Part shown: positions 7,162 through 64,000 of the stretch, in pieces
How positions within the stretch are numbered: position 1 is the stretch's first letter
How the letters are laid out: the number at the start of each line of letters is the position of its first letter
NCBI GenBank assembly: GCA_964019425.1
Contig: OZ025806.1
Location: 496,001-560,000, forward strand
DNA: 64,000 bases
Source: Flectonema sp. DT1601
Lineage: Eukaryota
Reading direction: 5' to 3'
Notes under the pieces: generated by a model
Databases searched by the model: none
What the model was told of the DNA's origin: nothing
What the model saw: the letters and a program-made list of their open reading frames with translations, nothing else
Position numbers and translations under genes: made by a program

Positions 7162-8766
7162 CTATGGAAACGGTACTCCGCTAAGACCAGGTGTTTTTGC
7201 GTAGCCTTGACTGCGTTTAGAAGAGCGTTTTAATGCAGTTTCAGGAATGAAAACGGTTATTCCCCGAGTTCCATTCACAGATGACCAACCTTCCTCAGTA
7301 TCCGGCATCAGTATAGGCTGTGAAGTGTCAATATCGAATATATTACTAGCAGGATGCTGAACAGATTGTAACCCTTGCATAGAAGTGTTACTGTGTTGAT
7401 GCATTGGAGGAAGTGGAGAACGACGACTTCTCTGAGGAGTAATCGAATTGCTTTGTTGAAATTGCTGTTGTTGTTGGCGCTCAAATATATCAGAGCCCAG
7501 AGTGACATCACCAAGTAATGGTCTGATAGGACTCTCTGCTGGTCTTTGGTATCCTTGTTGTTGATGCTGCTGTTGATGTTGCTGCAGTAATTGTCGTTGT
7601 TGCTGCTGCAACTGCTGCGGCTGTTGTTGCTGTTGCTGCAACTGCTGATGCTGCTGCGGCTGTTGTTGCTGTTGCTGCAACTGTTGCGGCTGTTGTTGTT
7701 GTAATTGCTGCAACTGCTGATGCTGCTGCGGCTGTTGCTGCTGCTGCAACTGCGGAGATGAATCAGCTATTTGATGGCTTTGAGGAATATAAGGACTTGG
7801 AACTCCAGTACTTCTTTGTGGGCTCATAAGTCGCTGTTGCTGTTGTTGTTGTTGTTGTTGTTGTTGTTGTGCCGGTTGCTGCTGACCACTCGCCTGTGAG
7901 TCTGGAGGACGAACAACACGAATCTCATCTTTGTTGTTTGGATCAAATAGTCTTCTGTAAATCTGAGACACTTTATAAGTGCTAAACATTTCTTCTGATC
8001 CCAAAGCAGTAAAGAGAGCCACAGCAATATTCTGTTGACGCTGAGTGTCGCGAGCCCTAATAGCGTAGTCACACTTAACAGACCATTCTGCATCCACAAG
8101 TTTAGGATCATTTATAATTGGGTAGGCATCATCTCCTCGTTCATCATTTACTTCTATTTTATTGTAATGCAGAACAACAGCTTTAATTGCCCCAGGGAAT
8201 ATCTGTAATAAGATATCTTCTCTTCTTACTCCATTACCAACTTCACTAATAATGTCATCTCTCAAAGCGTCTAAGAAAGGAACAACATGTTTTGCTCGGT
8301 GTTTATGAGCTTCATATTTAGCATAGTTGACACCCTCCATGTGTAAGCTACCCCTGACTACCGGTTCGTATGGTCCAAAGAATGCAGAGACTGGATCCAT
8401 CTGACGATCTGACTGAGGGTTGACCCGATCTTCAGGAGCTCTATCAAAAGTATCGAATCCTTTGGATAATAAATTAGCTACGGAATTTGGAACACCTGAA
8501 GCAAAAGGAACAGTTGCTGCCTTAGGTTGTAAGTCAGCATTAGGATGTGATGGGTGTGACGGAGGTAACTTTACATGATCTCTGTCTTCTCTGTTGTAGT
8601 CATAACGACCTGATGCTGATCCCCGACGAGATCTCGACCGTCTTCGAGAACTTGGGCGATATTCTGATGGAATTCTAACTTCAGAAGGTATGCGAGCATC
8701 TGAGGGAATGCGAGCATCTGAGGGTATGTGAGCATCTGAAGGCAAATTGTGAATCCTGGACGTCAT
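7162..8766 (-). CDS. Hypothetical protein with IPSDAR repeats, central globular region and Gln-rich region
   Basis: Long ORF on the coding strand. First ATG at 8766 follows an acceptor-like CAG. Confidence 0.75.
   Translation of the reverse strand: MTSRIHNLPSDAHIPSDARIPSDARIPSEVRIPSEYRPSSRRRSRSRRGSASGRYDYNREDRDHVKLPPSHPSHPNADLQPKAATVPFASGVPNSVANLLSKGFDTFDRAPEDRVNPQSDRQMDPVSAFFGPYEPVVRGSLHMEGVNYAKYEAHKHRAKHVVPFLDALRDDIISEVGNGVRREDILLQIFPGAIKAVVLHYNKIEVNDERGDDAYPIINDPKLVDAEWSVKCDYAIRARDTQRQQNIAVALFTALGSEEMFSTYKVSQIYRRLFDPNNKDEIRVVRPPDSQASGQQQPAQQQQQQQQQQQQRLMSPQRSTGVPSPYIPQSHQIADSSPQLQQQQQPQQHQQLQQLQQQQPQQLQQQQQQPQQHQQLQQQQQQPQQLQQQQRQLLQQHQQQHQQQGYQRPAESPIRPLLGDVTLGSDIFERQQQQQFQQSNSITPQRSRRSPLPPMHQHSNTSMQGLQSVQHPASNIFDIDTSQPILMPDTEEGWSSVNGTRGITVFIPETALKRSSKRSQGYAKTPGLSGVPFP
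8666..8745 (-). repeat. 18-nt coding tandem repeat, about 4 copies (LPSDAH/IPSDAR/IPSDAR/IPSEVR)
   Basis: Visible in both the DNA and the translation. Confidence 0.8.
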
Positions 8767-12507: not shown

Positions 12508-18241
<5,734 letters not shown>

Positions 18242-41936: not shown

Positions 41937-42872
41937 TTAAAGATTACGGACAGGCATTCTCTCACGAGTTCTACCCGGACTGACATTCCAGTGACCAGGT
42001 GGCTCTTGACGAGGATGACACTGAACTGGAAGACCATACCGCTGTTGCTGTTGTTGGTGTTGTTGTGTCATTAAAGGTGGTGAATGTACCTGTTGAGGAC
42101 TACAAGCAGACGGTTGTGAAAGAACTGCTAAGTTTCTATTACGTACTAAATTACTTCCTATCGGAGGTGTGTTCTCATCATCTGGTGAAATGATTGGCTG
42201 TCTCTGTTGATGATGAACATTACCAACAGGTTGAGAGACAGGTTGAGGGACGCTATAGTTCCAACCACCAAATTCCTGCATCCCTGGAGAACGAATACCA
42301 TTCTGAGGTTCCTCTTGTTGAATTGTTATCTGTTGAAGTGGTGCTCTGGAAATTGGAGCAGGCTCTGAACACACAAAGTGTCTGGATGTCTGCTTTAGTT
42401 TCTCAGGATCAATAGTAACTGTGTGATGACCTCCACCAGGACTTCTTACAGAGAATTCGAGCGCTCCATCATCAGAGAAGTCTGACTCTGATTCCGCCGG
42501 AGGGATATTTTCGGCTGACTGAGCTCCGAATATTGAAGAGAGTTGTTGAACTGATTGTTGCACTAATTGGATACCTCGCTGCTCAAATGGTGGACACGGT
42601 CTGCTGTTCTGCCTCGATGGCGGCTGCAGCTGTGGAGAAGTCATCTGCTGATTCCAATTCTGTTCAGCAGCTGGTTGTTTGTAAGGACCAAGTTGGACAG
42701 AATCTTGATTCCTATCAACATTCTGTTGCGGCCGAGTGGGAGACTGGAGCGGCTGCTGTTGATGTTGCAACTGGAGTGGCGGCTGCTGAAGCGACTGCTG
42801 CGAAGTTGCCTGCATGTGATGCTGCGGAGCAGTAGAAACTAAAGGAACTCCATGTTGCGGTTGTTGTTGTTC

Positions 42873-42964
<92 letters not shown>

Positions 42965-44957
42965 GGTGTTTTTGTTGCTGCTGTACCTGCTGTAAGTCCA
43001 TGTTCTCACCAAGAGTTGCAGGATTTCTATACTGACTTTGGTTGGCAGTTCGCGGTGGTGACATCATCTGCTGGCGGTTATTCTTCGTCGGTGGATGTAA
43101 CTGTTGGGAGGTTTAAATAATACGACAGACTTACTTCATCAAACCTCAAACAGCAATCAGAGTTTGTTTGATAAACACAACACGTTATTTGTGATAATTG
43201 AAATAAAAGAAAAACATAAAATAAAATAAATAAATAAAAAAACACACCTCCTCCTCACTATCGGCTTCCCAAACAGGTGCAGTAGGGCTGTGATTTGAAG
43301 TAGGCCTGTAACTAATTAGTTGTGTTGAGTTTGGATTAATAAGTTGCGATCCAATACTCGATGATCTGAGTGCTGATGGTGTTCCCAAAGCTGATCCTCT
43401 CCTAGACTGTGGAGTAGTAATATTAAGTGAACTCGGGATTGAAGAAAGTGTATTTGGATGTACTGGCGGCAACATCGTAAACGCTGAGGGTGTTATCGGC
43501 GCGGCAGGAATCGCCGCCCTCTCTGAAAAATCAGACGTGTGATTTGATAACGGAGGCATTGGTGTTACTCTACTTGACCTGGCAGAAGCTAAGGTCGCTT
43601 CAACACGAAGTTCTTCTTTAATTTTATGACGAAGTTCGCGTTCTACTTCCATCCTCCAACGCTCCATTTCCTCGTGTTTCATTGTGTCTAAAGGAGAAAT
43701 ACTTTGTTCACCTCCACTTAGTAAAGCACTTTGTTTTAATGAAGATATCTCTTCTGATAATCTGATCTTCTCTTTGAGAAGTTGTTGCTCTCGACGATTA
43801 TTCTCTTCGTCGTGTCTCTCTAAAGATGCAACTCTGCTTCGAAGTGAAACTAAATTACCATTCTCTCTCTCTTTCTGAGATAGCTTTGCTTTTAGTGATT
43901 CTGTTTCCTTCTTAGCTGCGATGATTTCTTGTTGTAGTTGCAGGTTAGCTTGAGTTTTTGATTCTGAACGACGAGTATTTGTTGTAGACCTAGCAGGTAA
44001 TAGATTAGATGACTCACTTCTTAAAGAACTCAACTCATCACGATGACCATTCACATGATGAGATAGAAGACTTGGACTTGGAATAGATACTTGTTGTGTA
44101 TTGTCAACTTTATCTGATTCTACGTACGGAGGTACTTTACCGACTGGGGTGATGCTGGACATTCGAGACACCTCATATTGAGAATCGTCGTGATTCGATT
44201 TCTTATCGAGTTGAGTATTCCTAGAACTCTGTTGGTATGAATGAGCACTGTGTTCACTTCCAGCAACTGTTGATTTCCGATTCGATCTTCGTGACTCTCC
44301 GTCATAGTCTTGTTGAGAGACTTGATTCGTATGGCGAGATGAGGCTGCCACACTCCCAACATTATTATGAACAATACTTCCTCCCTTTCCCGTAATTTCA
44401 GAATGACGATCCAGTTCGGTTCCGGCTGGGACAGTAGCATGACTTGCAGAAGCAGTATTACCATAACCCTGAGAACTTGCATTGCTGCTTGCGCGAGTTG
44501 AATGAGTTCTGTTTGAGTTGGCGGTTTTCTCTGTAAACATATTCGAGTTGGAAGCCAATGAAGCTGAAGGAGGTCTGCTAGTTCCAGCTTCAGATCTTCC
44601 TTCTTGTAATAATATGGTTATGACTTTTACAAAATCAGGAAAATAGCATCTCCCATCCTGACGAGGTGACAATTGAGGCCACAATTTCATTGCAACTCTC
44701 TGGTCAGATGCGGTCATGGAATCTGGGTTCGAAAAGACTCCTAAATATCCCAAACAATTAGTAACTTGATGATAAAGTAATCGACAGTCTTCGTTCTTCA
44801 TTAGATCTTCAGATTCAACTCTTTCTGGTGCGAGATTTCCAAAAGACTTACTTGGACAAGGTCCATAGTCACTACTACCAATAAACTTCTGAAATACCTC
44901 GGCTAAATATTGTGAATTTCGACCGATCGTTGTCACGGATTGCCCCCCGTCACTCAT
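41937..44957 (-). CDS. Ser-rich, coiled-coil, poly-Gln hypothetical protein, 2 exons, about 957 aa
   Basis: Exons 44957-43248 and 43100-41937, joined by a 147-nt GTGTG…AACAG intron in phase 0. A weak EF-hand-like segment (DGRCYFPDFVKV) lies near the N-terminus. Confidence 0.75.
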
Positions 44958-45501: not shown

Positions 45502-48500
45502 TCAATACTTCCTTCCTAAAACCCTCAGAGACTGGTAATAACTTACATAAGTTGATATAAGTACTTTATCAATACGAGGAACCGGAATTGGTTTTCCTAT
45601 TTTCAAAAGATCAGTTTGAGCCTGTGAAGCCACAACGGAAGAACTATTCTCAAACACATCATCAGAAATATTAAAAAGAGGAGACACCACTCTTTGAAGT
45701 GCCTGAGAAGTTGAATCAGAACAGAAATGATCGTGAAGACGAGACTTCCACGTCGATAACTCAATGCGATGCATGAGTAAGTGATGTTTTGAATGCATGT
45801 GTGAAATCACTGAGTTCCACTGCATACTTCCTCCAGATAAATGATACACTTTACCACTTGAGACTGCCTCACTTGACAATCCAACGATTATCTTTGAACA
45901 ATAATCAACAGGAAGTAAACTGCACGGTGTTTGTAAATCAGGTGCAGATTTCATAAGCAAAAAAGCCAACAAGAGTCTTTCACTGATGTTGTTTACGTTA
46001 GTCACACCTGTTAAAGCTGATCCGGTGACGTTGTTGAGACGGAATATAGTCACATCGATTCCGAGTGAGTTCATCTTTTTAAGAAGATTCTCACAAACGA
46101 AATCTGACATTGCTCCACCAGTCGTAATACCGCTCGGAAGTGATGACCCGTTGCAATTTGAATTGATTATTACTTCTGGATGTGATGATGGAATTACACC
46201 ACCAGCAAGATGAGTCGCAAATACTATTTTCTTCTTCCGCAGTTGAACAACCAGAGATAAAATAGTTTTCATTCCTTCAATACTTAACAATCTCAGTAGT
46301 GAATAAGATAGAGAGCTGTAATTGAAGGTATTACCCACCAAGTGATAGACAATAGAAACGTCAGAGCATAATTGATCCCAATGGCACCGTGAGATTCCCA
46401 AATGAGGATGTTCTGCGTTACCTAACAATATGACGATAGTACCAACATTGATTAATTTATTTAACAGGTGGCTGTCCAGTTGGTATTTTGAAAATGATTT
46501 TCGAATTCGATCAACTCCGTCTGAGACACTCCTCGCTCTGACAAGACAATAAATTATAACGTCTCTCTGAGTTGAATCTTTTCTTTTCATTTCCACCATC
46601 AAATCATTCAGGACAAAGGAAGCAATAAAACCAGTAGCTCCAGTTAATAAAACATCACTGCGTCTCTCGCTGTTTAATTCATCTGAGTAGTTCTCAACAA
46701 ACGAGTCAATATTCAGATCGTTTTTCATCATTTCGATCTCTTTCAGAGAAGGCTTGCTTCCTTCTTCTTTATTGGTTTGTTTTGAAAATCTCTCTACGTA
46801 CGATGCCAGTCTTTTCGGTGTTGGATTTTCTAATAAATTAATAAGCTGTAAAGGAACACTGAGTGACAGCATTGAATTTATCATTTTAATGACCCTGGTC
46901 GCCGTTGTCATGTCACCTCCGCAATAGAATAAAGTGTCACCGCAACTCACGGATATTGACACATCGTTTCCAAGTGATTCAGCAAACGCAAGGCAAATAA
47001 TGTGTTCAACATAGGAACGTGGTGGGATGAATTTGATTCTAAAATTCGAAGGGTTGCTTTGAGAAGTGATCAGTCGCAAGGATCTCCTCACATCTGATAT
47101 TGGTAAATGCTCCAAAACTACAATCCTATCAATCTGTATGTGAGGTGATATAACTCCGACTTGACTTAACCAAATTTCATTTATGATGTCTTTGTTAACC
47201 AACGAGTTTAATGATTTTTGAACATAGCAAATTAAGCGTCTCTCACCAACTGAATCATCCTTTGTTATGACGATAGCTTTTGAGATTATGTCCTTATTGA
47301 GATGTAATATAATTCTTTGAAGATGAGCGCAGTCGATATGATGACCTCTTCTCTTAGCAGTTAGAGCCTCTTGTGATCCAATCTGGATAATTTTATTATT
47401 TATTATCTGTGCGAGGATTCCTGTTCTGTATACTCTACCGTTCGACCATTCAGAAAATTTACTCCGAGTTGAACTTTTTTGTTTTTTGTGTATTGAATTC
47501 CATTTAAAGTGTTTTGACTTTATTAGAAGCTCACCTGGAACAGAAAAATCAGTTTGCTGTTTGAATTTATTAATTGTCAGAAGTGAGTACAGTGGTGTTG
47601 CCTCACCTAGTATGAATTTAACACCGTCACGATCCTCAATTTGATTTGAATTTTCTTTTTTATTAATTCCAATGTTAGCAGCGACCACACCAAAACACTC
47701 CGGTAAAACAAACAAAGACGATACAACAGTTTTTTTTAACTTTTCAATACTCAAATTAGGTGCCGTTGAAACCAACAAATGACGAACCCCCAACTCATCC
47801 GCAATATCTACCAATCCAGAAGAATACCGTCCGGCTATGACAGTGATGTTAGAAGTAGATATAATAAAGTTATACGATTCTTGTAATGTTTTTTGAGTAT
47901 TTGATGATAATAGTCGAGCATCGGAACAGCAAATTGATCCGCCAATTAATAAAAACGGAAGTACATTAGAAACAAACAGAATTAGAGAATTTGAATGACC
48001 CACTGCGACCTCAGACAAAAACTGATTGATGAATCCAAGACAGTCAGTTTGTTCAATTTGAAAAGTACTGCTGAACCACTCACAATGTTCTCTGATCACA
48101 TCTTCGGTGTGATAAATTGAAGTCCCGTCATAACAATTAATTGAGAAGACATTATTTGATGAAAATTCATTTTTATCAAAATTATTTTTTAAATGTTCTT
48201 CAACACCAATAATCATATCCCGATTAATTAAAAGATGATCATCTGACTTAGTAGTCCAATGCTTGTGAGATTCAGTGCCTGACTGAACTACGAATGTCTT
48301 TCCTGATAAGATTGCTGCTATGACGCATAATAAATGGGAAACGTCAAACCTTGCGGCAGATGAATTTTCTATACACACTGATGTCTTGTCAGAATTCTGT
48401 ATTATTGACGCTAACGATATGGCTTCATCAAAAAACGATTTAAACGTCACTGTTGTGAAATTTCCTGTTCGATGATCAATTTCTTTACAGATAATTCGAT

Positions 48501-51500
48501 CAGAGAACTTTTCTGCTGAAGATAGAAGTAGATGACGGAGTTGAATATTGTTGTTTAATTCGTGTGAGGGTGAGACTGGTTTATTGGGTTCTGAGTTACC
48601 AACAACACGAACGTCAGCGATAATTTGACTTCTTATTACAGACAGATCTCTCAACCAAAAACAAACATGTTGTAGAAGAATTATTGAATTTTGATTACTC
48701 ACTTTCGATGAATCGTATCTTAGTTTCATGACTGACTTTGAGTTATGTCGTTCCAACGTGAATGAGAAATTTTGTAACGATCCGACTGGCATGTTGGTAT
48801 CAACAATATTGTGATCATCATATAAATCTCTGTAGCTGACTACAATGTCATAGAGAGGATTGGAGAGCAGAGTTCTATGTCGATGAACTGTTTTTATAAT
48901 TTCACTCTCTGGAACAAAATTATAACCAACAGACTCAGAGTACTGCCGCGACAGAGTTGACAACAACCCTGCGAGACTGTCTTTACCTTGAAATGGAAAT
49001 TTTATTCTCATTGGAAGAATTTTGGTATAATTCCCCAGAGTATTGAAATCGTTATACGACTCTCTTAAATTATCCCACAACCCAACCATCACATCACACT
49101 GTGATGTATATAAGTGAAATATCGATGACACCACAGCAGTTAAAACAACTGACGGAATAGTACTGAACTCAGATGATATTTTTATCAAATTCTCAACTAC
49201 GCAATCATTTACAACAATCGATTCAGTGTTGTAATTTCTGATTTGTTGATCTTCACGTATCCAGTCCCATGGAAAAGATAGATGGCTCGATGACCCAAAC
49301 AGCAATCCCGTCCAATAGCTGATCGCATTATCACCAATAGGACTTTCTAAAATAGATTTTTGACTAAACGTGAAATTAGTATATTTACAAACACTCTCAC
49401 TGATGCTGTCATTCGATTTCAGTAACGAGATTATCGAACTCAGAACAGTTCTGAGACCCTCATCATCAGAGAAGACAGGGTGACATGCTAATATTAAATA
49501 TTTCTTATCCAAAACAGATGAAGTAATTAAGTCTGTCCCATGCAACACAGTATCACTGTAGAACTTTAAAGTTGTGATGTATTCCTTAACTGAGGTCTGG
49601 ATATCCTCATCGGTGGTGGTGGCTGAGGTAACAACTATTTCTCTTTTCAGATTCACATCATCGCTTACTTGTAAAAACCCATCACAAAATTCAACTTGAA
49701 GAAGTTCCTGTGTTGATATGATGTCGTTCATTACCGATTGCACTTTTAAGACGTCCAGTTCGAATCCGACATCAGAACAGATGTAAACTACGCGACTCTC
49801 AAATTTGGATGTGAATTCAGAAGATAAATACTCCATTTGAATGTGAGAAAGTGGATTTCGATCAGAAAATGACGAGACAGGTATTTCGACCAACGGTGAA
49901 GTTTTTCTAATCAAATCAACGTGAGATGCTATTTTACGAAGAGTCGAAGCGGAAAGTAAATCCCTCGGAGAGAACTTGACTTTAAAAAAAGAAGCAACGT
50001 GACAAGCAATCCTCCTCAAGGATACAGAATCACATCCAATCCCCAACACAGGACTTTGTATACTACTGAGATTACTTGACCAGAATCTACTCAGAAGTAA
50101 TAATTTAATTTCAGTGAGACTCTCTGGCTGAAACCTAACCACCAACAGCGGATTCAAGATCGATTGTGAAGAAACTATGTCACTTGAATATTGAAAAGTT
50201 TCTTCTTCTGATTTAAACTTTTTAAAAAACATATCAACATCAGATGGTTGACATATCTCATCATCGTCGTGAACTGGAATATGCGGAAGTATATTACACA
50301 CAGCATTGGTTAAGGTTGGTTTCCTTGATGATTTCGTTAAAATAAAAAAATCAGGAACAACACAACCCACATGATGATCTTTAGAAAACTCTCGCAGTTC
50401 AATTCCCGTTGCGGATTCCGTTAGTGAAACGATTGCAACCAGATACTCAAATGATTTTCCGTTATTAACATGCGAGTGTTTCGTTACAGATGCAAAAATA
50501 ATTTTTGGATTTTGTTTCAAATTCCTTACAATGTCGCAAAGGTTAACCACAACACCTCTGTAGGTAATCATTTGTTTATTATTATCAGTTTGAGTGTGGT
50601 TAAAAATATATCCTTTTTGATTCCATGAACACGTCATATCACAACAGAATGATAGCAGATGATCATCTGTTGAATTTAAATAACAAAAATTTTGAGATTC
50701 AACATCAGAAACAGTTACGACACCCCCACCTGATAAAAACAATTGACCGGATGCGTACAAGGGAATCATCTCACCTGATGGCCCAACAATAGTGGCGGTA
50801 ATGCCTTCAGATGGTTTGCCTAAAGGGAGATTGTCAGTAGTCTTATTTTCAATCTCATTTAAGTACCGATGAACATCACATTGAAGGGCTGGTATTCCTG
50901 AACATTCGTATCCACTACAACTTGTTATTCTTTTGAAACAAATATTTTGATTTTTTGAAACCAGTTCACATATTTTACTACTCTCGTTCTGATCACAACT
51001 AAACCAAATTACAGAAACTGATTTCGGAATTGCGTCATTCTGATACAGATGGATCAGGTACCATGATGGAATAATAATATCAGTCGGACTGATGTCTTTA
51101 AAAATATCTATTTCCAAATTCCGATGATCATTTATACCGTTTTTGTATAACACTGAATCACATAGATAGAACCCACCTCCACTGGTGATACATCCGAAAA
51201 GCTCAAATGGTGTAATTGTCTGACCGATCAAAGCTAATTTAGTGCAGTTGTTCCAATTTAGTTCATCAACAGATATTTTTGTACAGTAATGGTGAAGGTC
51301 AGTGTTTGTGAATTTCTGATGAATAGAACCCGTAGATGGATTGATAGTAAAGAAAACTACGTCGGTGGCATCTCCTGTATCCTCTATGTGATCGACATTG
51401 TCAGTTATTTTTATTTTTTCAATATTTACAATACTTGTAACTGAATTGTTGTCATTTTCATCGAAGTCCTCGTCATCGACTAGGAGATAATTTATTTCTA

Positions 51501-54500
51501 GTTTTTCACAAATTTTAATTACTTCTTTGCGATCAAACAAATCCGTCCTCACTATTGAAAAGGAAATCCTCGACAAGAGGCAAGCGAATACCGTTTTCAC
51601 TATATCAACGGCACTGGTCATGTATATCACAGATTTCTTTCCAGGATTTTGGATTGTCGATAAGTAAGAAGAAATAGATGAGCTGCTGTCCATCAAACCA
51701 GAAATAGTAATTGGCTGAACAGACTTCACTCCTCGTGGGTAAATTACAACTGAGTCAGAATCTGTCACCAATCTTTGTATTAAAGCATTAGTAACAGTCC
51801 AATTGGTATTGGATGAAACATGTACTTGAGACCAATCCCTCAGTTTTAAAGTACTATTTTCATCAAGCAAAGATTCAGATCGCTGTAATATAAATCCAAC
51901 AGACGAATCGAATGAGAATTCTCTACTCTGAGAGGTAAATGAAATGAGTTGGGTGTACGAATCTAACAATGAAGAAACCTCTTCTACGGAGTACTTTTCA
52001 TTATCAAATGTGATTTGAATATTTAATTCTCCGTTGGTGCCTTCTGTCATACTGGTTGATAATGTGTATCCGTGTCGTGATCTGGAATGATAATTTTGTG
52101 TGATGTCGAGAGAGTTTAATTCAACATTCTTCATTCGTAAAGTTGAGTTTGGAAAATTCAAAAGATTTCTGGATAATTTTTGAGGTGTTTGGGTCAAGTC
52201 AACAAAACACTTTTCACAATCGGTTTCATCTTCTCTGAAATGTTGATCATAAAGTCCCTGCGATAAAGAATCAAACGTACTATTACAAAGTGCTCGAAAA
52301 CTAAGCGATCGAGAAGGTGTCACAACCACTGAGTGAGTACTTGAAAAACAACCAACCGTAGACCCAAACTCAACACGACATCTATTCGAAAATGGAAATG
52401 CCATTTTGACTTCGTCACTACTTTCAAAGACAGATATCACAATAATATAAAGTGTTAAAAACACACTTGTTCTTGTCACGGCACATTCTTTTGCTATTCC
52501 CTGAATCGACTTTACAGAATCAGAAGATATAATTTTATTTATTGATCGCATCGTTGATCTACTCAAAGATTTTTTACCAATCACACCAACTCCACTATTG
52601 AGTTTTGCGTGATCACCCGCCAAAAGCAACAGTCTTTTTTCATACTGTGTGTAACTCACATAAGGTAAAGCGTGTTGTGCTGAGGTTGATTTTGGACTGG
52701 TCAAAAGTGATGATTCAGCTTGAGTTGTATAACAACACTTTAAATCTCTCATAATGATGGCGACAGAGTAATCATCAGCACAGATTGGATGAGTTACGAG
52801 CTGGAATATCGTTGAGTTTTTGAAATGAAAAAGACGAATCCTTACAAGACAATCCTCACTAAGCTCAAATGGTATTGATGCTTCAGAAACTAACAGAGAC
52901 GATGCCTCTTCACTCTGACTGCAGATATCTTCACACTGCAATTCACTTATATTTAAACAAACAGAATCAGGTGTCGTGACTTTCTGATAAATCGATTGAT
53001 CTTTTCTCAAATGATACGTTGTTCTTAGCATTCCATGATTGCTAACAATTCTGTAAAGGCAATCAGCAAGTCTCTTTAAATCCACAACACCAAGTTGAAT
53101 AACCGCATGAATAAACTTATTTAAGTCACCAGGATGTCTCATGCTGCAGTGCCTATTGTATAACTCTGCTTGTGAGAGTGAGACAGCTGAAGGTTCACTT
53201 GCATATGGAGAAATTGGTATTGGTCTTTTCCCCTTTAGTTGAGCTATATTTACTAAAAGTGATATGCCGCTAACAGACGCATGTTCGAGTACTTCTGAAA
53301 TGGAAATAACACAATTCAACTTTGAGCATATCCTTCCAACTATCGTCACCGCTGTTAAAAAGCTACCTCCGTAATAAAAAATAGATTTTTCAACATCAAT
53401 TACCGTCAAGTTCAATTCCGTTAAACAGATACTTTTAACGCTGTCGAGTACCATTGGCGGGGGCGGTTGAATTCTTTCAATCATAACATCTCGTGACTTT
53501 CCAGTTGGAGAGCTACTTGGCGAAGATGAAGCGCTTGAGGCATTTTCAATGTTCTGCAACAGAAACCTACTCCGATCCGAGCTTATAATTTTTATTTTTT
53601 CTACTTCTCCAGCAATATAGGACGCAACCTTTTTCCTATCGACATCACCTGTTGGTGTTGTAGGTATTTTTTTTATTGTGAACAAGAAGCTGGGGATTAA
53701 TTCTGAAGTCACTAACTTTGTTATTTCATCTCTGATAAACTCCACTGAAACTGTTGTGTGTCGTCTAGTCTTGAGAACAACCGCCAAGTGATGCTCGTGT
53801 TGGATCGCCACGCAGTCTTCAACAGCAGAAATACTTCTCAGCAACACTTCAAAAGCATGAAACGAAATCCGACTTGAAAATGAAAATATTTGCATCTGAG
53901 AAGGATTCTTTCGTAAGTATTGAATATGGTTTTCATCATTAATGGTAACGACATCTTCACATGATGTGATGTGTTCACTACTCTGATTATGACAAAGGCA
54001 TAATGGAGAATGTTGTCGACTACCCGATTTCGGATCTTTATTTCCATCTTTGAAAGCTGACTTAACACCAGTCCAGTCAGGTAGCAATGCATCAACGTCA
54101 TGCAATGAAAAGTTTGGTACAATTTGGGCAATCGGTGCTGCAGTTTCACTACACAAACAACTACCCGCGCAGTGTAGTGTACCCTCAACTCCCTTTGGAA
54201 CTTGTTGCATGTCAGTATCAAGTATTTTGCAGTAGTTTCCTGATATAGGTTGGCCGAGGGAAGCAATATCGCTCTCTCTCCATGTTTCACAGGCTCCTAA
54301 TAATTTAATACTGGAAACAATAGTTTGTTGACCTCCGTAGTAGTCTACGTACACTGAACTAAAAGGAGCATTTTGTAAAAACAAAACTATCGCTGGTGAC
54401 ATTCTCAATCCCTCTCCACAGATGATGATATCCCTGAGACTAGATGGTCTGCAGTTTAGTATTCTACTCACAGATGATAAGTCGCTCAGATAAGACGGCG

Positions 54501-57105
54501 ATACAAATATTCGTTCAATCCCAAAGTGAGAGATATAACTACCAAGAACAGCCGCATGAGACTCTACCTCCGTATCAACAACACATAAAGTACCTCCACT
54601 ATTAATGCACGACCATAACAGAAGTGGATAAACAGGAGATGTGATCTTTGCGTTGAATAATATCCGAACACCCGCAGCGATAGGTCTGTTTTCACACGAC
54701 CACAGCACTTCGTTTATTATACTACTGTGAGATACTATAGTTGCGTGATTGTAAATATTTTGACCACCTCCGAGATCGCTGTTTTGTAGAAATGAAGGAA
54801 ACGACATCAATGCTGCATGATCATCATCATCATCATCATCATCGCCATTATTATTTGAAAGGTTACAACCATCGTACGATGTGAGGAGATCACATATAAC
54901 TTCCTGGACTAAAACTTTAGTTTGATGATTATCACTACTATTCCACGATAGTAATTCATCAACGTGTGGATATCTTTTTGATGTGATAATTGAATGAAGT
55001 CTGCAGTTATTAATCACACTCTCAACACAAGAAAAAGGTGAATTCGAATCCAAAGGAATACACACGCCTCCCGCTTTTAATATTGCCACCAACGTCAGTG
55101 TACAGAAATAACCGTGTGGAATCAACACGGCTATCCTTTTTCCGGTTAAACTACCAACACCACTACCCGACAGCATTGATTGTGTGAATCGAGCGTATTG
55201 ATTTGCTTGTGAGTTTAATTTTTGAAAACTAACTGCGATTGACCCTTCAAGCAACGCAGTCACTTCAGGAAAATCTTCTGCAGCCTGTTCCAATAGTTGA
55301 GTTATTTTTGTGTAAGTGTTTTTGACGGGTATTTGATTGACTGATGACAATACTTTTTGTATAGATGCTGCCTGAGCAGTTGACACAACTTCCAGATTGT
55401 TTATTTCATTATTTTGTAAAACTTTAACGAGAGTGTGAATGTAGTTCTCGCACATGTCTTGTACCCTAACTGGATCGTAAGCCTCACAATAGACAAGTGA
55501 ACCTTGAAGTGTTCCGTTTTTTGTATAACAGACGAGCTGCATGTCGAATAAAGACTGAACGTAGTCATCAGCTAGCAGCTGACATGGTTTTGCACCGAAG
55601 CTTAGAGTGTTGTCAGAACTAGGTGTACTTAAAGTGAATGGCAACACTCGATACCCAATTTCACTATTTTCAAAAAATTGAAATCCAATTCTGCAAAAAC
55701 CACTTCCATCACCACCACCACCACAATTTGCAGATTCCTCTATCGATGTTATCTTTTGAAGTATTCTGTAGAATGGAGTGTGGTCATCAGTGGTCTTAAT
55801 GGAGCTCAAGATCGATTCCGCCGAAGAGCAAATTTCATCAAAAGTATCCCCAGAAGGAGAGATCGGAATGATATTATCAAACATTCCTAAACCTGGTCTT
55901 GTGTCAGGTGATTGCTGAAAACCAATAGAAACATCCCTTCGATTACAATACTTTCGCAACAACACTATCCAAGTTGCTAATAAAACTGTTTCTTGAGAAA
56001 TTTTATTTTCACCCGAAAACGAAGCAATCGTATCAACCAATTTTGATGAGAACACTATTGGAGAAGACTTACACTTGCTACCTCTTTTTGAAGGGTACGT
56101 TCCACTTGAATTCCGTTTACCAGGAAGTTTTAAAGAAGTAATATTGGTAAACACCGTAGACTTTGAAGGGTTTTTATTTTCAGCTGATAAAAATTTTTTC
56201 CAGTAAATTATATCCGAACAATGCGATGAGACGGTTTCCATATTTTGATGAGTTTTTGGACCAGCAATCCTAACACCGGTCCCGGTGTAGTCACCTTGAC
56301 AGAATACATCTCCAAACAGGTAGTCGTCTGGGGGGGAAGTGGTTTCTTGAGCTTCACATGTGCGGAGGGTTTCTTCGCATGAGTTTGATGTTTTCTTTTT
56401 TATGTTTAGGTTGAAATTTGTCGTATATCCATGACACAGATCTTTAATAAAGATGTCAACAGATTTCAAATCACATAAAACCGCGTGAAAGGTTATTATA
56501 ATCGAATCCGAATCATGGCCTCTAAAAATACCAACTCTGAATAGTGATTTTGATAAATCAGAAAATGGTATTGTCATCTGTTGAACAAGAGCATTCCAGG
56601 ATGACTTTTGATCATCAGAGATTGTAATATCGAAGTTAAAAGACCCAACAGAGTGTTCCACGAGCATCATATTATCGACGTCAATACCAAGTCTAAGTAT
56701 TGGATGGTGATGTGATAAGCTTATCACAATCTGTTTAAGTCTAGGAATATCAATTCTACTTCCTAAAGCAGCTTTCCAACACAAAACTTGAGATGAAGCT
56801 GCCAGCTGTTCAACCACAAACTGCTGCATGCTACTGAGTAATAATTTATTTTCATTTTCCTTGTCATTATTTCCAATTGTTATTTCCGAAGCATTCGATT
56901 TCTTTCTCAGTGGAGCGACAGATATTTGTACAGAGCAATCAACACAAGTATTATCTGGATGCCTCTTTGCGATTATTTTCATATCACTGGAACTACACCC
57001 TCGACAAATCGTACGAAGGCAGCTTCTACACCAATGCCGCCTGGTGATCAAACTGAAGTCTTTCTGACATATACAACATTTTTGTTGACGACGATCGACA
57101 GGCAT
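45502..57105 (-). CDS. FYVE-finger-fused trimodular NRPS-like protein, FYVE-(C-A-T)3-R, catalytically degenerate
   Basis: 3867-aa intronless ORF. N-terminal C..C…FSLITRRHWCRSC…IC..C…C..C. C-domain relics FHAVLCD, THPICAD, CHPVFSD. A-domain relics KAGGVCIPLD, GQPISG, GELLI, YRTG. Carrier motifs GGSFL, GCDSV, GGDMT. Terminal SDR VLLTGATGFIA…YCLVRA. Confidence 0.9.
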   Translation of the reverse strand: MPVDRRQQKCCICQKDFSLITRRHWCRSCLRTICRGCSSSDMKIIAKRHPDNTCVDCSVQISVAPLRKKSNASEITIGNNDKENENKLLLSSMQQFVVEQLAASSQVLCWKAALGSRIDIPRLKQIVISLSHHHPILRLGIDVDNMMLVEHSVGSFNFDITISDDQKSSWNALVQQMTIPFSDLSKSLFRVGIFRGHDSDSIIITFHAVLCDLKSVDIFIKDLCHGYTTNFNLNIKKKTSNSCEETLRTCEAQETTSPPDDYLFGDVFCQGDYTGTGVRIAGPKTHQNMETVSSHCSDIIYWKKFLSAENKNPSKSTVFTNITSLKLPGKRNSSGTYPSKRGSKCKSSPIVFSSKLVDTIASFSGENKISQETVLLATWIVLLRKYCNRRDVSIGFQQSPDTRPGLGMFDNIIPISPSGDTFDEICSSAESILSSIKTTDDHTPFYRILQKITSIEESANCGGGGDGSGFCRIGFQFFENSEIGYRVLPFTLSTPSSDNTLSFGAKPCQLLADDYVQSLFDMQLVCYTKNGTLQGSLVYCEAYDPVRVQDMCENYIHTLVKVLQNNEINNLEVVSTAQAASIQKVLSSVNQIPVKNTYTKITQLLEQAAEDFPEVTALLEGSIAVSFQKLNSQANQYARFTQSMLSGSGVGSLTGKRIAVLIPHGYFCTLTLVAILKAGGVCIPLDSNSPFSCVESVINNCRLHSIITSKRYPHVDELLSWNSSDNHQTKVLVQEVICDLLTSYDGCNLSNNNGDDDDDDDDHAALMSFPSFLQNSDLGGGQNIYNHATIVSHSSIINEVLWSCENRPIAAGVRILFNAKITSPVYPLLLWSCINSGGTLCVVDTEVESHAAVLGSYISHFGIERIFVSPSYLSDLSSVSRILNCRPSSLRDIIICGEGLRMSPAIVLFLQNAPFSSVYVDYYGGQQTIVSSIKLLGACETWRESDIASLGQPISGNYCKILDTDMQQVPKGVEGTLHCAGSCLCSETAAPIAQIVPNFSLHDVDALLPDWTGVKSAFKDGNKDPKSGSRQHSPLCLCHNQSSEHITSCEDVVTINDENHIQYLRKNPSQMQIFSFSSRISFHAFEVLLRSISAVEDCVAIQHEHHLAVVLKTRRHTTVSVEFIRDEITKLVTSELIPSFLFTIKKIPTTPTGDVDRKKVASYIAGEVEKIKIISSDRSRFLLQNIENASSASSSPSSSPTGKSRDVMIERIQPPPPMVLDSVKSICLTELNLTVIDVEKSIFYYGGSFLTAVTIVGRICSKLNCVISISEVLEHASVSGISLLVNIAQLKGKRPIPISPYASEPSAVSLSQAELYNRHCSMRHPGDLNKFIHAVIQLGVVDLKRLADCLYRIVSNHGMLRTTYHLRKDQSIYQKVTTPDSVCLNISELQCEDICSQSEEASSLLVSEASIPFELSEDCLVRIRLFHFKNSTIFQLVTHPICADDYSVAIIMRDLKCCYTTQAESSLLTSPKSTSAQHALPYVSYTQYEKRLLLLAGDHAKLNSGVGVIGKKSLSRSTMRSINKIISSDSVKSIQGIAKECAVTRTSVFLTLYIIVISVFESSDEVKMAFPFSNRCRVEFGSTVGCFSSTHSVVVTPSRSLSFRALCNSTFDSLSQGLYDQHFREDETDCEKCFVDLTQTPQKLSRNLLNFPNSTLRMKNVELNSLDITQNYHSRSRHGYTLSTSMTEGTNGELNIQITFDNEKYSVEEVSSLLDSYTQLISFTSQSREFSFDSSVGFILQRSESLLDENSTLKLRDWSQVHVSSNTNWTVTNALIQRLVTDSDSVVIYPRGVKSVQPITISGLMDSSSSISSYLSTIQNPGKKSVIYMTSAVDIVKTVFACLLSRISFSIVRTDLFDRKEVIKICEKLEINYLLVDDEDFDENDNNSVTSIVNIEKIKITDNVDHIEDTGDATDVVFFTINPSTGSIHQKFTNTDLHHYCTKISVDELNWNNCTKLALIGQTITPFELFGCITSGGGFYLCDSVLYKNGINDHRNLEIDIFKDISPTDIIIPSWYLIHLYQNDAIPKSVSVIWFSCDQNESSKICELVSKNQNICFKRITSCSGYECSGIPALQCDVHRYLNEIENKTTDNLPLGKPSEGITATIVGPSGEMIPLYASGQLFLSGGGVVTVSDVESQNFCYLNSTDDHLLSFCCDMTCSWNQKGYIFNHTQTDNNKQMITYRGVVVNLCDIVRNLKQNPKIIFASVTKHSHVNNGKSFEYLVAIVSLTESATGIELREFSKDHHVGCVVPDFFILTKSSRKPTLTNAVCNILPHIPVHDDDEICQPSDVDMFFKKFKSEEETFQYSSDIVSSQSILNPLLVVRFQPESLTEIKLLLLSRFWSSNLSSIQSPVLGIGCDSVSLRRIACHVASFFKVKFSPRDLLSASTLRKIASHVDLIRKTSPLVEIPVSSFSDRNPLSHIQMEYLSSEFTSKFESRVVYICSDVGFELDVLKVQSVMNDIISTQELLQVEFCDGFLQVSDDVNLKREIVVTSATTTDEDIQTSVKEYITTLKFYSDTVLHGTDLITSSVLDKKYLILACHPVFSDDEGLRTVLSSIISLLKSNDSISESVCKYTNFTFSQKSILESPIGDNAISYWTGLLFGSSSHLSFPWDWIREDQQIRNYNTESIVVNDCVVENLIKISSEFSTIPSVVLTAVVSSIFHLYTSQCDVMVGLWDNLRESYNDFNTLGNYTKILPMRIKFPFQGKDSLAGLLSTLSRQYSESVGYNFVPESEIIKTVHRHRTLLSNPLYDIVVSYRDLYDDHNIVDTNMPVGSLQNFSFTLERHNSKSVMKLRYDSSKVSNQNSIILLQHVCFWLRDLSVIRSQIIADVRVVGNSEPNKPVSPSHELNNNIQLRHLLLSSAEKFSDRIICKEIDHRTGNFTTVTFKSFFDEAISLASIIQNSDKTSVCIENSSAARFDVSHLLCVIAAILSGKTFVVQSGTESHKHWTTKSDDHLLINRDMIIGVEEHLKNNFDKNEFSSNNVFSINCYDGTSIYHTEDVIREHCEWFSSTFQIEQTDCLGFINQFLSEVAVGHSNSLILFVSNVLPFLLIGGSICCSDARLLSSNTQKTLQESYNFIISTSNITVIAGRYSSGLVDIADELGVRHLLVSTAPNLSIEKLKKTVVSSLFVLPECFGVVAANIGINKKENSNQIEDRDGVKFILGEATPLYSLLTINKFKQQTDFSVPGELLIKSKHFKWNSIHKKQKSSTRSKFSEWSNGRVYRTGILAQIINNKIIQIGSQEALTAKRRGHHIDCAHLQRIILHLNKDIISKAIVITKDDSVGERRLICYVQKSLNSLVNKDIINEIWLSQVGVISPHIQIDRIVVLEHLPISDVRRSLRLITSQSNPSNFRIKFIPPRSYVEHIICLAFAESLGNDVSISVSCGDTLFYCGGDMTTATRVIKMINSMLSLSVPLQLINLLENPTPKRLASYVERFSKQTNKEEGSKPSLKEIEMMKNDLNIDSFVENYSDELNSERRSDVLLTGATGFIASFVLNDLMVEMKRKDSTQRDVIIYCLVRARSVSDGVDRIRKSFSKYQLDSHLLNKLINVGTIVILLGNAEHPHLGISRCHWDQLCSDVSIVYHLVGNTFNYSSLSYSLLRLLSIEGMKTILSLVVQLRKKKIVFATHLAGGVIPSSHPEVIINSNCNGSSLPSGITTGGAMSDFVCENLLKKMNSLGIDVTIFRLNNVTGSALTGVTNVNNISERLLLAFLLMKSAPDLQTPCSLLPVDYCSKIIVGLSSEAVSSGKVYHLSGGSMQWNSVISHMHSKHHLLMHRIELSTWKSRLHDHFCSDSTSQALQRVVSPLFNISDDVFENSSSVVASQAQTDLLKIGKPIPVPRIDKVLISTYVSYYQSLRVLGRKY

Positions 57106-63608: not shown

Positions 63609-64000
63609 CTACGTAATAACAAATAGGAAGGGTCGTAAAAAAAAAAAAAAAAAAAAAATACGTAAAATGAAATAACAAGAGGCGGGAAGCTGTAAAACTT
63701 CGAGAACTGCGGAAAAAACTGTTCGCAACCGAAAACAAGCCAATTAGACTAAGAGTGTTGATGCTACGCTGACACAATTTTTCTTTCGCTCGTAAACATG
63801 TCTTTGAGATGAAAAGAAAAGGAAAAAAGAAAATAGATATATCGCCATTGCATATTGTATCAGTCACACAATGGTAAGACGTAACTGGCCTTTTTTTTTT
63901 TTTTTTTTTTTTTTTCGTTACTAAGTATAACAAATAGGAAGGGCCCGTAAAAAAAAAGTTCCGAGAGAAACCGTAAAAATGAAATAACAAGAGGCGGAAA
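63609..64000. repeat. Degenerate direct repeat, about 310-bp spacing
   Basis: taacaaataggaaggg…cgtaaaaaa and cgtaaaatgaaataacaagaggcgg occur at about 63617-63685 and again at about 63928-63997. Confidence 0.8.

Follow-up and report, generated by a model that had tools for sequence, protein, structure and literature searches.

A multimodular peptide synthetase with a FYVE finger probably persists as a conserved pseudoenzyme in the diplonemid Flectonema

A 64,000-nucleotide stretch of the genome of Flectonema sp. DT1601 (assembly GCA_964019425.1, contig OZ025806.1, positions 496,001 to 560,000 of the forward strand; hereafter the window) encodes, on its minus strand, a giant protein laid out as a nonribosomal peptide synthetase (NRPS) behind an N-terminal FYVE zinc finger. 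Nearly all of its catalytic residues are gone and its reading frame is intact; an equally eroded orthologue is found in Flectonema neradi, and a protein of the same architecture with nearly all catalytic motifs in place is found in Sulcionema specki. That the window protein is a pseudoenzyme, a core on which the scaffold and regulator readings discussed below agree, is very probable. As to its role, the sequence on balance favours a folded protein that binds without catalysing and serves as a scaffold, with possible ligand pockets in its first adenylation domain and its reductase domain and with a variant FYVE finger.

The gene is a single open frame of 3867 codons (protein label P0001), each other frame containing 192-382 stops, and the unbroken 11.6-kb frame of the initial annotation is thus borne out. 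The domain order is FYVE-C-A-T-C-A-T-C-A-T-R (C, condensation; A, adenylation; T, carrier; R, reductase), based on Pfam matches to FYVE, Condensation, AMP-binding, PP-binding and NAD_binding_4 and on a profile from 120 fetched modules, by which the three C-A-T modules were laid out (Table 1). C-A-T modules in order, a release domain and NRPS folds, the features by which an NRPS is recognized here, were all found by Pfam, profile, models and fold searches. The FYVE finger lies outside the range covered by the initial annotation, which also did not include the diplonemid context or the motif-intact Sulcionema relative.

Catalytic residues were scored against the domains of 505 fetched proteins, which were aligned to profiles, were not picked by motif and passed >75% profile coverage (929/999 C, 956/1126 A, 1021/1032 T and 290/292 R domains). 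The 36 catalytic or phosphate-binding positions were fixed in advance and include the A5 pair, which we take to belong in such a set. The other motifs are as given in PMC10510592. Base rates in the relatives are 874/929 for the second His of the C motif (His2), 943/956 for the A3 Lys, 1020/1021 for the carrier Ser and 290/290 for both the R Tyr and the R Lys. The window protein keeps 4 of the 36 positions (S771, D1051, D2156 and S2360), whereas of 233 further columns with ≥90% conservation it keeps 110 (P = 1.7e-5, Fisher's test). A2 and A3 align poorly, and their gaps were scored as losses; the retention of D2156 hinges on the alignment. When A2 and A3 are excluded, 3/18 catalytic positions are kept against 87/139 other invariant positions (P = 2.4e-4). 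In these alignments catalytic-site loss is selective and extends across all four catalytic domain types, which upholds the pseudoenzyme status first proposed from the letters alone; the nine motifs quoted in that proposal were all found, at most about 20 nt from where it had placed them.

The losses are spread along the whole chain. The C domains, annotated as lacking HHxxxDG, indeed have no His2 in any of three cases (A208 in C1, P1440 in C2 and P2543 in C3), and C2 retains 8/8 other invariant residues in both orthologues. The A3 phosphate loop, (S/T)(S/T)G(S/T)TGxPK, is intact in 0/3 A domains; the initial claim that no loop is recognizable needs refining for A2, which holds the vestige FTINPSTGSIHQ. 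The A10 Lys is absent from all three (D1154 in A1, the Asp already reported; unalignable in A2; loop deleted in A3). A1 has lost the P-loop, the A5 Thr/Glu, the amino-binding Asp and the A10 Lys and has retained G897, Y923-G924 and D1051 (the A7 Asp), with Lys for the A8 Arg, and this holds for both orthologues. In A3, the A7 Asp is Ile and the A10 loop is deleted in both, and the A5 Glu of A2 is possibly retained in both by hand alignment. The carrier Ser is present in one of the three T domains, as annotated (F1249 in T1, S2360 kept in T2, M3399 in T3). In the R domain the catalytic triad is gone (Thr to H3632, Tyr to G3664 and Lys to D3668; R, G and D in the orthologue), whereas TGATGF, CLVR and R3523 are kept; the annotated combination of TGATGF with a missing Tyr and Lys therefore stands, with the refinement that the last (third) Gly of the Rossmann motif is A3495 here and Gly in the orthologue. 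The A10 Lys is required in active enzymes, the Thr/Ser-Tyr-Lys triad is seen in all R domains, and A7 contacts ribose and A3 phosphate (PMC10510592). By these assignments nucleoside-side residues survive in A1 and R and chemistry residues are gone. The adenine contacts of A1, and the roles of pocket residues beyond A3, A7, A8 and A10, are presumed here.

The orthologue was recovered by an R-domain HMMER search of 1.84 billion representatives (5776 matches). Among the best 150 of these, the top match is an F. neradi protein of 3457 aa (P0246; Trinity transcriptome contig TRINITY_DN16102_c0_g2), with 360 bits against 159 for the runner-up. The two proteins align colinearly with 38% identity over 3568 columns, and identity is highest in the A1 core (54%) and R (51%), followed by T1 (45%), C1 (43%), C2 (42%), C3 (39%), T3 (38%), T2 (37%) and A2 and A3 (33% each). 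The F. neradi protein retains 2/35 catalytic and 97/226 other invariant positions, and the A10 loop of its A1 is deleted; the A7 Asp of A1 is the only catalytic residue kept by both. No carrier Ser is common to the pair, because the T1 Ser is found only in the orthologue (GASSL; Phe here), the T2 Ser only in the window protein (Leu in GADLL of the orthologue) and the T3 Ser in neither. The His2 position of C2 is Pro here and Gln in the orthologue, and that of C3 is Pro in both. The pair have the same residue at 14 of 35 former catalytic positions, compared with 449/1168 variable and 100/226 other invariant columns; since this is close to the agreement at ordinary variable columns and not above that at invariant ones, no common replacement catalytic set shows up at these positions. 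The best-conserved 40-residue segments are the end of R (78%), two in the A1 core (75% and 68%) and the His-rich patch of R (68%). The His/Cys insertion of A1 has a similar pattern in the orthologue and none in Sulcionema, and together with the R patch it is, speculatively, a candidate for a new metal or pH-sensitive site.

Other searches were less productive. A word search with A1 (range 1359-3880 aa) found P0246 alone, the 3957-aa Sulcionema protein being outside that range. Word searches with the whole length (224 matches) and with R (379 matches, 778-2220 aa only) gave only distant NRPSs, which is a weak negative, as the whole-length search missed both diplonemid relatives although they are in its length range. 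An Atlas search with aa 1-1702 returned generic NRPS clusters, and two metagenome scans yielded nothing.

When neutral evolution was simulated 500 times, the median number of substitutions up to the first stop was 13 (maximum 133), and without selection 95-120 stops are expected at 58-64% identity to the ancestor, which is approximately what two lineages at 38% identity imply. Because both frames are open, the dead state must be old and maintained. The open, colinear orthologue and the simulation together indicate that the protein is kept by purifying selection, as had been reasoned initially from the intact frame; dN/dS would probably be saturated at this divergence. A recent pseudogene is largely refuted by a dead state common to a 38%-identical orthologue, for which about 100 stops would be expected. 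Hidden introns that might restore the motifs were rejected, as no poly-A/CAG intron-acceptor signal was found inside the frame and the mRNA-derived orthologue is equally dead, and a changed genetic code seems unlikely, as the substitutions go to many residues and the neighbouring genes match Pfam normally.

The motif-intact relative is the best match to C1 among the fetched proteins, with 138 bits against 51 for the next, and is also the best match to A1 (P0335; EukProt EP00755_Sulcionema_specki_P010126). It has the same 11-domain architecture, FYVE included, in 3957 aa, and it retains 34/36 catalytic and 211/233 other invariant positions, the exceptions being C1 His2, which is Pro (FHPLVMDY), and one Thr-to-Ser change. 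From its sequence, this FYVE-C*-A-T-C-A-T-C-A-T-R line would be expected to yield a short, reduced peptide at a membrane; a description of the S. specki FYVE-NRPS was not found in the literature searched. Sulcionema is an early branch within or next to the Diplonemidae (PMC7049700), and its taxonomy is treated in PMC8061765. Domain trees, each with ~60 further domains, place C1 and A1 of the dead pair with their Sulcionema equivalents (FastTree support 1.0 and 0.98, respectively) and R with Sulcionema R (SH-aLRT 90 in a quick tree). The stem to the dead pair measures 1.87 in A1, 2.2 in R and 0.76 in C1, where F. neradi contributes half a domain only, and tips after the split measure 0.41-0.66 in A1 and R (the shortest or near-shortest) and 0.9-1.1 in A2 and A3. 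Long stems with short tips point to rapid change at the loss of catalysis, fast in relation to other domains, and then to renewed constraint. The long stems belong to formerly active domains and the short one to C1, which was already dead, His2 being absent from it in Sulcionema too. The shared architecture, the shared FYVE and the grouping of C1, A1 and R with motif-intact Sulcionema imply that in this lineage a motif-intact synthetase gave way to a conserved pseudoenzyme.

The FYVE finger contains all eight zinc-binding Cys residues (C10, 13, 26, 29, 34, 37, 54 and 57). Its lipid-binding motifs differ from those of EEA1, RUFY1 and Vps27, RRHWCR and NTC being aligned with R[RK]HHCR and RVC, and the WxxD that we take to be characteristic of phosphatidylinositol 3-phosphate (PI3P) binders is absent. 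The Sulcionema finger is 47% identical, has the same RRHWCR variant and is likewise without WxxD and RVC. AlphaFold2 models, for which alignments of active enzymes served as input, have a mean pLDDT of 69 for C1-A1-T1 (pTM 0.67) and A3-T3-R (pTM 0.54, with a poor A3 core). The C1-A1-T1 model has a target-normalized TM of 0.84 to the Txo1 C-A structure 6oyf, the models match NRPS modules (E 9e-58), and the R model matches MxaA R with Z 43.5 and an rmsd of 2.6 Å over 385 residues. The models are compatible with the NRPS fold and silent on activity.

A scaffold or nucleotide sensor fits the conservation pattern, and the following scheme would account for it. Ancestral diplonemids would have had an active, Sulcionema-like FYVE-NRPS. 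In the ancestor of the window organism and F. neradi, the catalytic domains would have changed fast and lost their chemistry before constraint resumed, leaving a protein that presumably has none of the adenylation, carrier, condensation and reductive release functions of a synthetase. The C-A-T chain could then be a long, rigid spacer that also offers a docking surface, placed by the variant FYVE finger on a membrane or a partner. A1 may bind an adenine nucleotide and R may bind NADP(H), both without turnover, or the two may contact partner proteins via their newly conserved surfaces.

Several points weigh against this scheme. Activity, ligand, partner and location are predictions from sequence only. 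Loss of C His2 alone is not decisive, because several C domains are active without it (PMC10510592). The pocket residues retained are Gly, Tyr and Asp, and the fold alone could account for their conservation. With neither the second His nor WxxD nor RVC in the FYVE finger, PI3P binding is uncertain. Modelling from alignments of active enzymes biases the result to the canonical fold, and the model of A3 is poor. In the trees, modules 2 and 3 fall apart from Sulcionema modules 2 and 3 and cluster with each other on long branches. A single orthologue was found, and although it is labelled a complete ORF, it starts inside C1 without a FYVE; this finger may have been lost, or the transcript cut short.

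Among the alternatives, a prozyme-type regulator deserves the most weight, although we consider it unlikely. Here the protein would descend from a duplicate of an active FYVE-NRPS of the same genome and would bind that enzyme to activate, inhibit or localize it. A motif-intact protein of equal architecture does exist in a diplonemid, and the retention of the complete domain chain is what a same-shape partner would favour. Three diplonemid NRPS orthogroups are recorded in the supplement to PMC10161547, without comment on activity; S. specki contributes 4 proteins, H. phaeocysticola 3, R. humris 2 and D. papillatum 0, so a species can carry several copies. In the sister group, the trypanosomatids, AdoMetDC and deoxyhypusine synthase are each activated by a dead paralogue (PMC5201418). 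Against this, no active copy was found in the window or among the fetched Flectonema proteins, most fetched rows being without a taxon, and the best R-domain matches to Sulcionema R are ~40% identical, none of them identified as diplonemid. The searches behind this covered the best 150 of 5776 R-domain matches in a 50% library that collapses relatives, in which an active copy could be missed. Most NRPSs, moreover, work as monomers. A more specific form, in which the dead 430-kDa megasynthetase docks as a duplicated FYVE-NRPS copy on the active copy at a membrane and switches that enzyme in response to adenylate and NADP(H) bound in A1 and R, is conceivable from the sequence and more doubtful still.

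A divergent active enzyme, in which A1, R or a C domain would perform non-canonical chemistry outside the usual motifs, is improbable. A1 and R are the best-conserved domains and have gained conserved His/Cys patterns, and the His2-independent activity of some C domains, together with the otherwise complete C2, could be read in the same way. However, former catalytic positions vary like ordinary sites, the A10 loop is deleted in the orthologue A1, no carrier Ser is shared, and the R Tyr and Lys have become Gly and Asp in both orthologues.

The initial annotation had also raised a single-carrier tether, in which T2 would be loaded in trans and the remainder of the chain would act as scaffold. 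S2360 is at the canonical position, and inter-module loading past a dead A domain is described for fungal SidD and Nps6 (PMC10192304), but this proposal does not survive comparison with F. neradi and is now very improbable: its T2 has Leu at that position, T2 retains 1/6 other invariant residues in either species, and the sole carrier Ser of the orthologue is in T1, where the window protein has Phe. A recent pseudogene, neutral relic or sequence artefact has a negligible chance, for although this exact gene is known from DNA alone in one metagenome assembly, the dead state recurs in an independently sequenced 38%-identical orthologue, neither frame contains any of the ~100 stops expected without selection, and conservation tracks the domain structure.

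In domain order and folds the window protein resembles multimodular NRPSs with a terminal reductase (myxalamid MxaA R, PDB 4u7w; cyanobacterial C-A-T-R), and among the matches listed its nearest named NRPS relatives have 19-35% identity. It differs from reductase-ended NRPSs in its losses across all four domain types, its FYVE finger and its eukaryotic host. Its R domain recalls atypical SDR redox sensors of the NmrA/HSCARG type, which we take to have kept the Rossmann fold and lost Tyr and Lys; in contrast to these, it terminates an NRPS chain of 3867 aa, and its dinucleotide binding is putative. The Sulcionema FYVE-NRPS shares the 11-domain architecture, the RRHWCR finger, a dead C1 and the ancestry of C1, A1 and R, and differs in its nearly complete set of catalytic residues. 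Inactive NRPS domains are kept elsewhere, as a docking platform in the glycopeptide X-domain (Tcp12; PMC10510592) and as the truncated dA domains of fungal SidD and Nps6 (PMC10192304), but there one dead domain sits in a working line, whereas in the window protein the line is dead throughout. Trypanosomatid prozymes of AdoMetDC and deoxyhypusine synthase are, like the window protein, euglenozoan pseudoenzymes derived from an active relative (PMC5201418), and the PRMT1 prozyme is another euglenozoan pseudoenzyme (PMC3663545, bioRxiv 10.1101/776112). Those prozymes are small paralogues that demonstrably bind a partner and activate it, whereas for the window protein a partner in the same genome is hypothetical.

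In the non-subscription literature searched, neither a FYVE-NRPS fusion nor a multimodular NRPS that is dead throughout was found described, and literature on diplonemid NRPSs and polyketides yielded neither a description of the window protein nor a relevant natural-product paper. Known dead NRPS parts are single domains in working lines; in this case a dead three-module line is conserved as a whole and has a motif-intact relative. The two forms provide a before-and-after pair for studying how a megasynthetase may be co-opted to a non-enzymatic job, with Sulcionema as the cultured relative, and they bring to light a FYVE-NRPS fusion among marine protists of an abundant group. Genome-mining tools would call the window gene a peptide synthetase, which is most likely wrong.

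Table 1 Features of the FYVE-NRPS gene in the window (positions counted from its first nucleotide)
Feature	Position	Strand	Basis
Whole ORF, FYVE-C-A-T-C-A-T-C-A-T-R pseudo-NRPS (probable)	45502..57105	-	open frame, Pfam, profile
FYVE zinc finger, aa 1-61	56923..57105	-	PF01363 E 6e-8; PDB FYVE matches
C1, aa 85-565, FHAVLCDL	55411..56853	-	profile alignment
A1, aa 595-1165, best-conserved domain	53611..55323	-	profile and orthologue alignment
His/Cys-rich insertion in A1, HSPLCLCH...H, directly before the A7 Asp	53971..54012	-	orthologue comparison
T1, aa 1216-1292, GGSFL	53230..53460	-	alignment
C2, aa 1305-1725, THPICADD	51931..53193	-	alignment
A2, aa 1765-2275, strongly eroded, only a vestigial P-loop	50281..51813	-	alignment
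T2, aa 2322-2405, GCDSV	49891..50142	-	alignment
C3, aa 2410-2830, CHPVFSDD	48616..49878	-	alignment
A3, aa 2850-3345, strongly eroded, low core pLDDT	47071..48558	-	alignment, model
T3, aa 3358-3445, GGDMT	46771..47034	-	alignment
R, aa 3480-3867, TGATGF and CLVR kept	45505..46668	-	alignment, model
His-rich patch ISHMHSKHHLLMHRI in the R C-terminal subdomain	45763..45807	-	near-identical in orthologue, not in Sulcionema

Among 23 ORFs scanned in the window, those supported by Pfam are all on the minus strand and eukaryotic in kind, and neighbouring genes encode Sar1, a DEAD helicase, a NIF phosphatase, RPE65 and a cNMP-gated channel. One-direction gene arrays of this euglenozoan type are known in Diplonema papillatum (PMC10161547), and together with the two relatives the array makes a diplonemid host likely. 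No tailoring or transferase genes were found beside the NRPS among the Pfam-annotated neighbours, and Rfam gave 0 matches in the window. Introns are evident in the window, with likely 3' ends at 63885, 62217, 58311, 57975, 37571 and 25636 (minus strand), where a run of 16-25 A directly precedes CAG without a pyrimidine tract.

A perfect (TGT) repeat occupies positions 14631-17127 (832 copies, 100% matches) and opens four spurious ORFs of 860-900 aa; so pure a repeat may have expanded very recently or be an assembly artefact. Imperfect triplet repeats at 7556-7747, 38158-38571 and 42853-42984 lie in minus-strand ORFs and probably encode Gln-rich tracts. Among the fetched proteins, P0247-P0252 and P0258 are bacterial PKS-NRPSs (one from Desulfobacteraceae) with two reductase domains, the internal one followed by half a condensation domain. 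We note that another R-domain match, from Rhizamoeba saxonica (P0233), is an amoebozoan A-(T)-R protein whose motifs look intact and which does not group with the diplonemid proteins.

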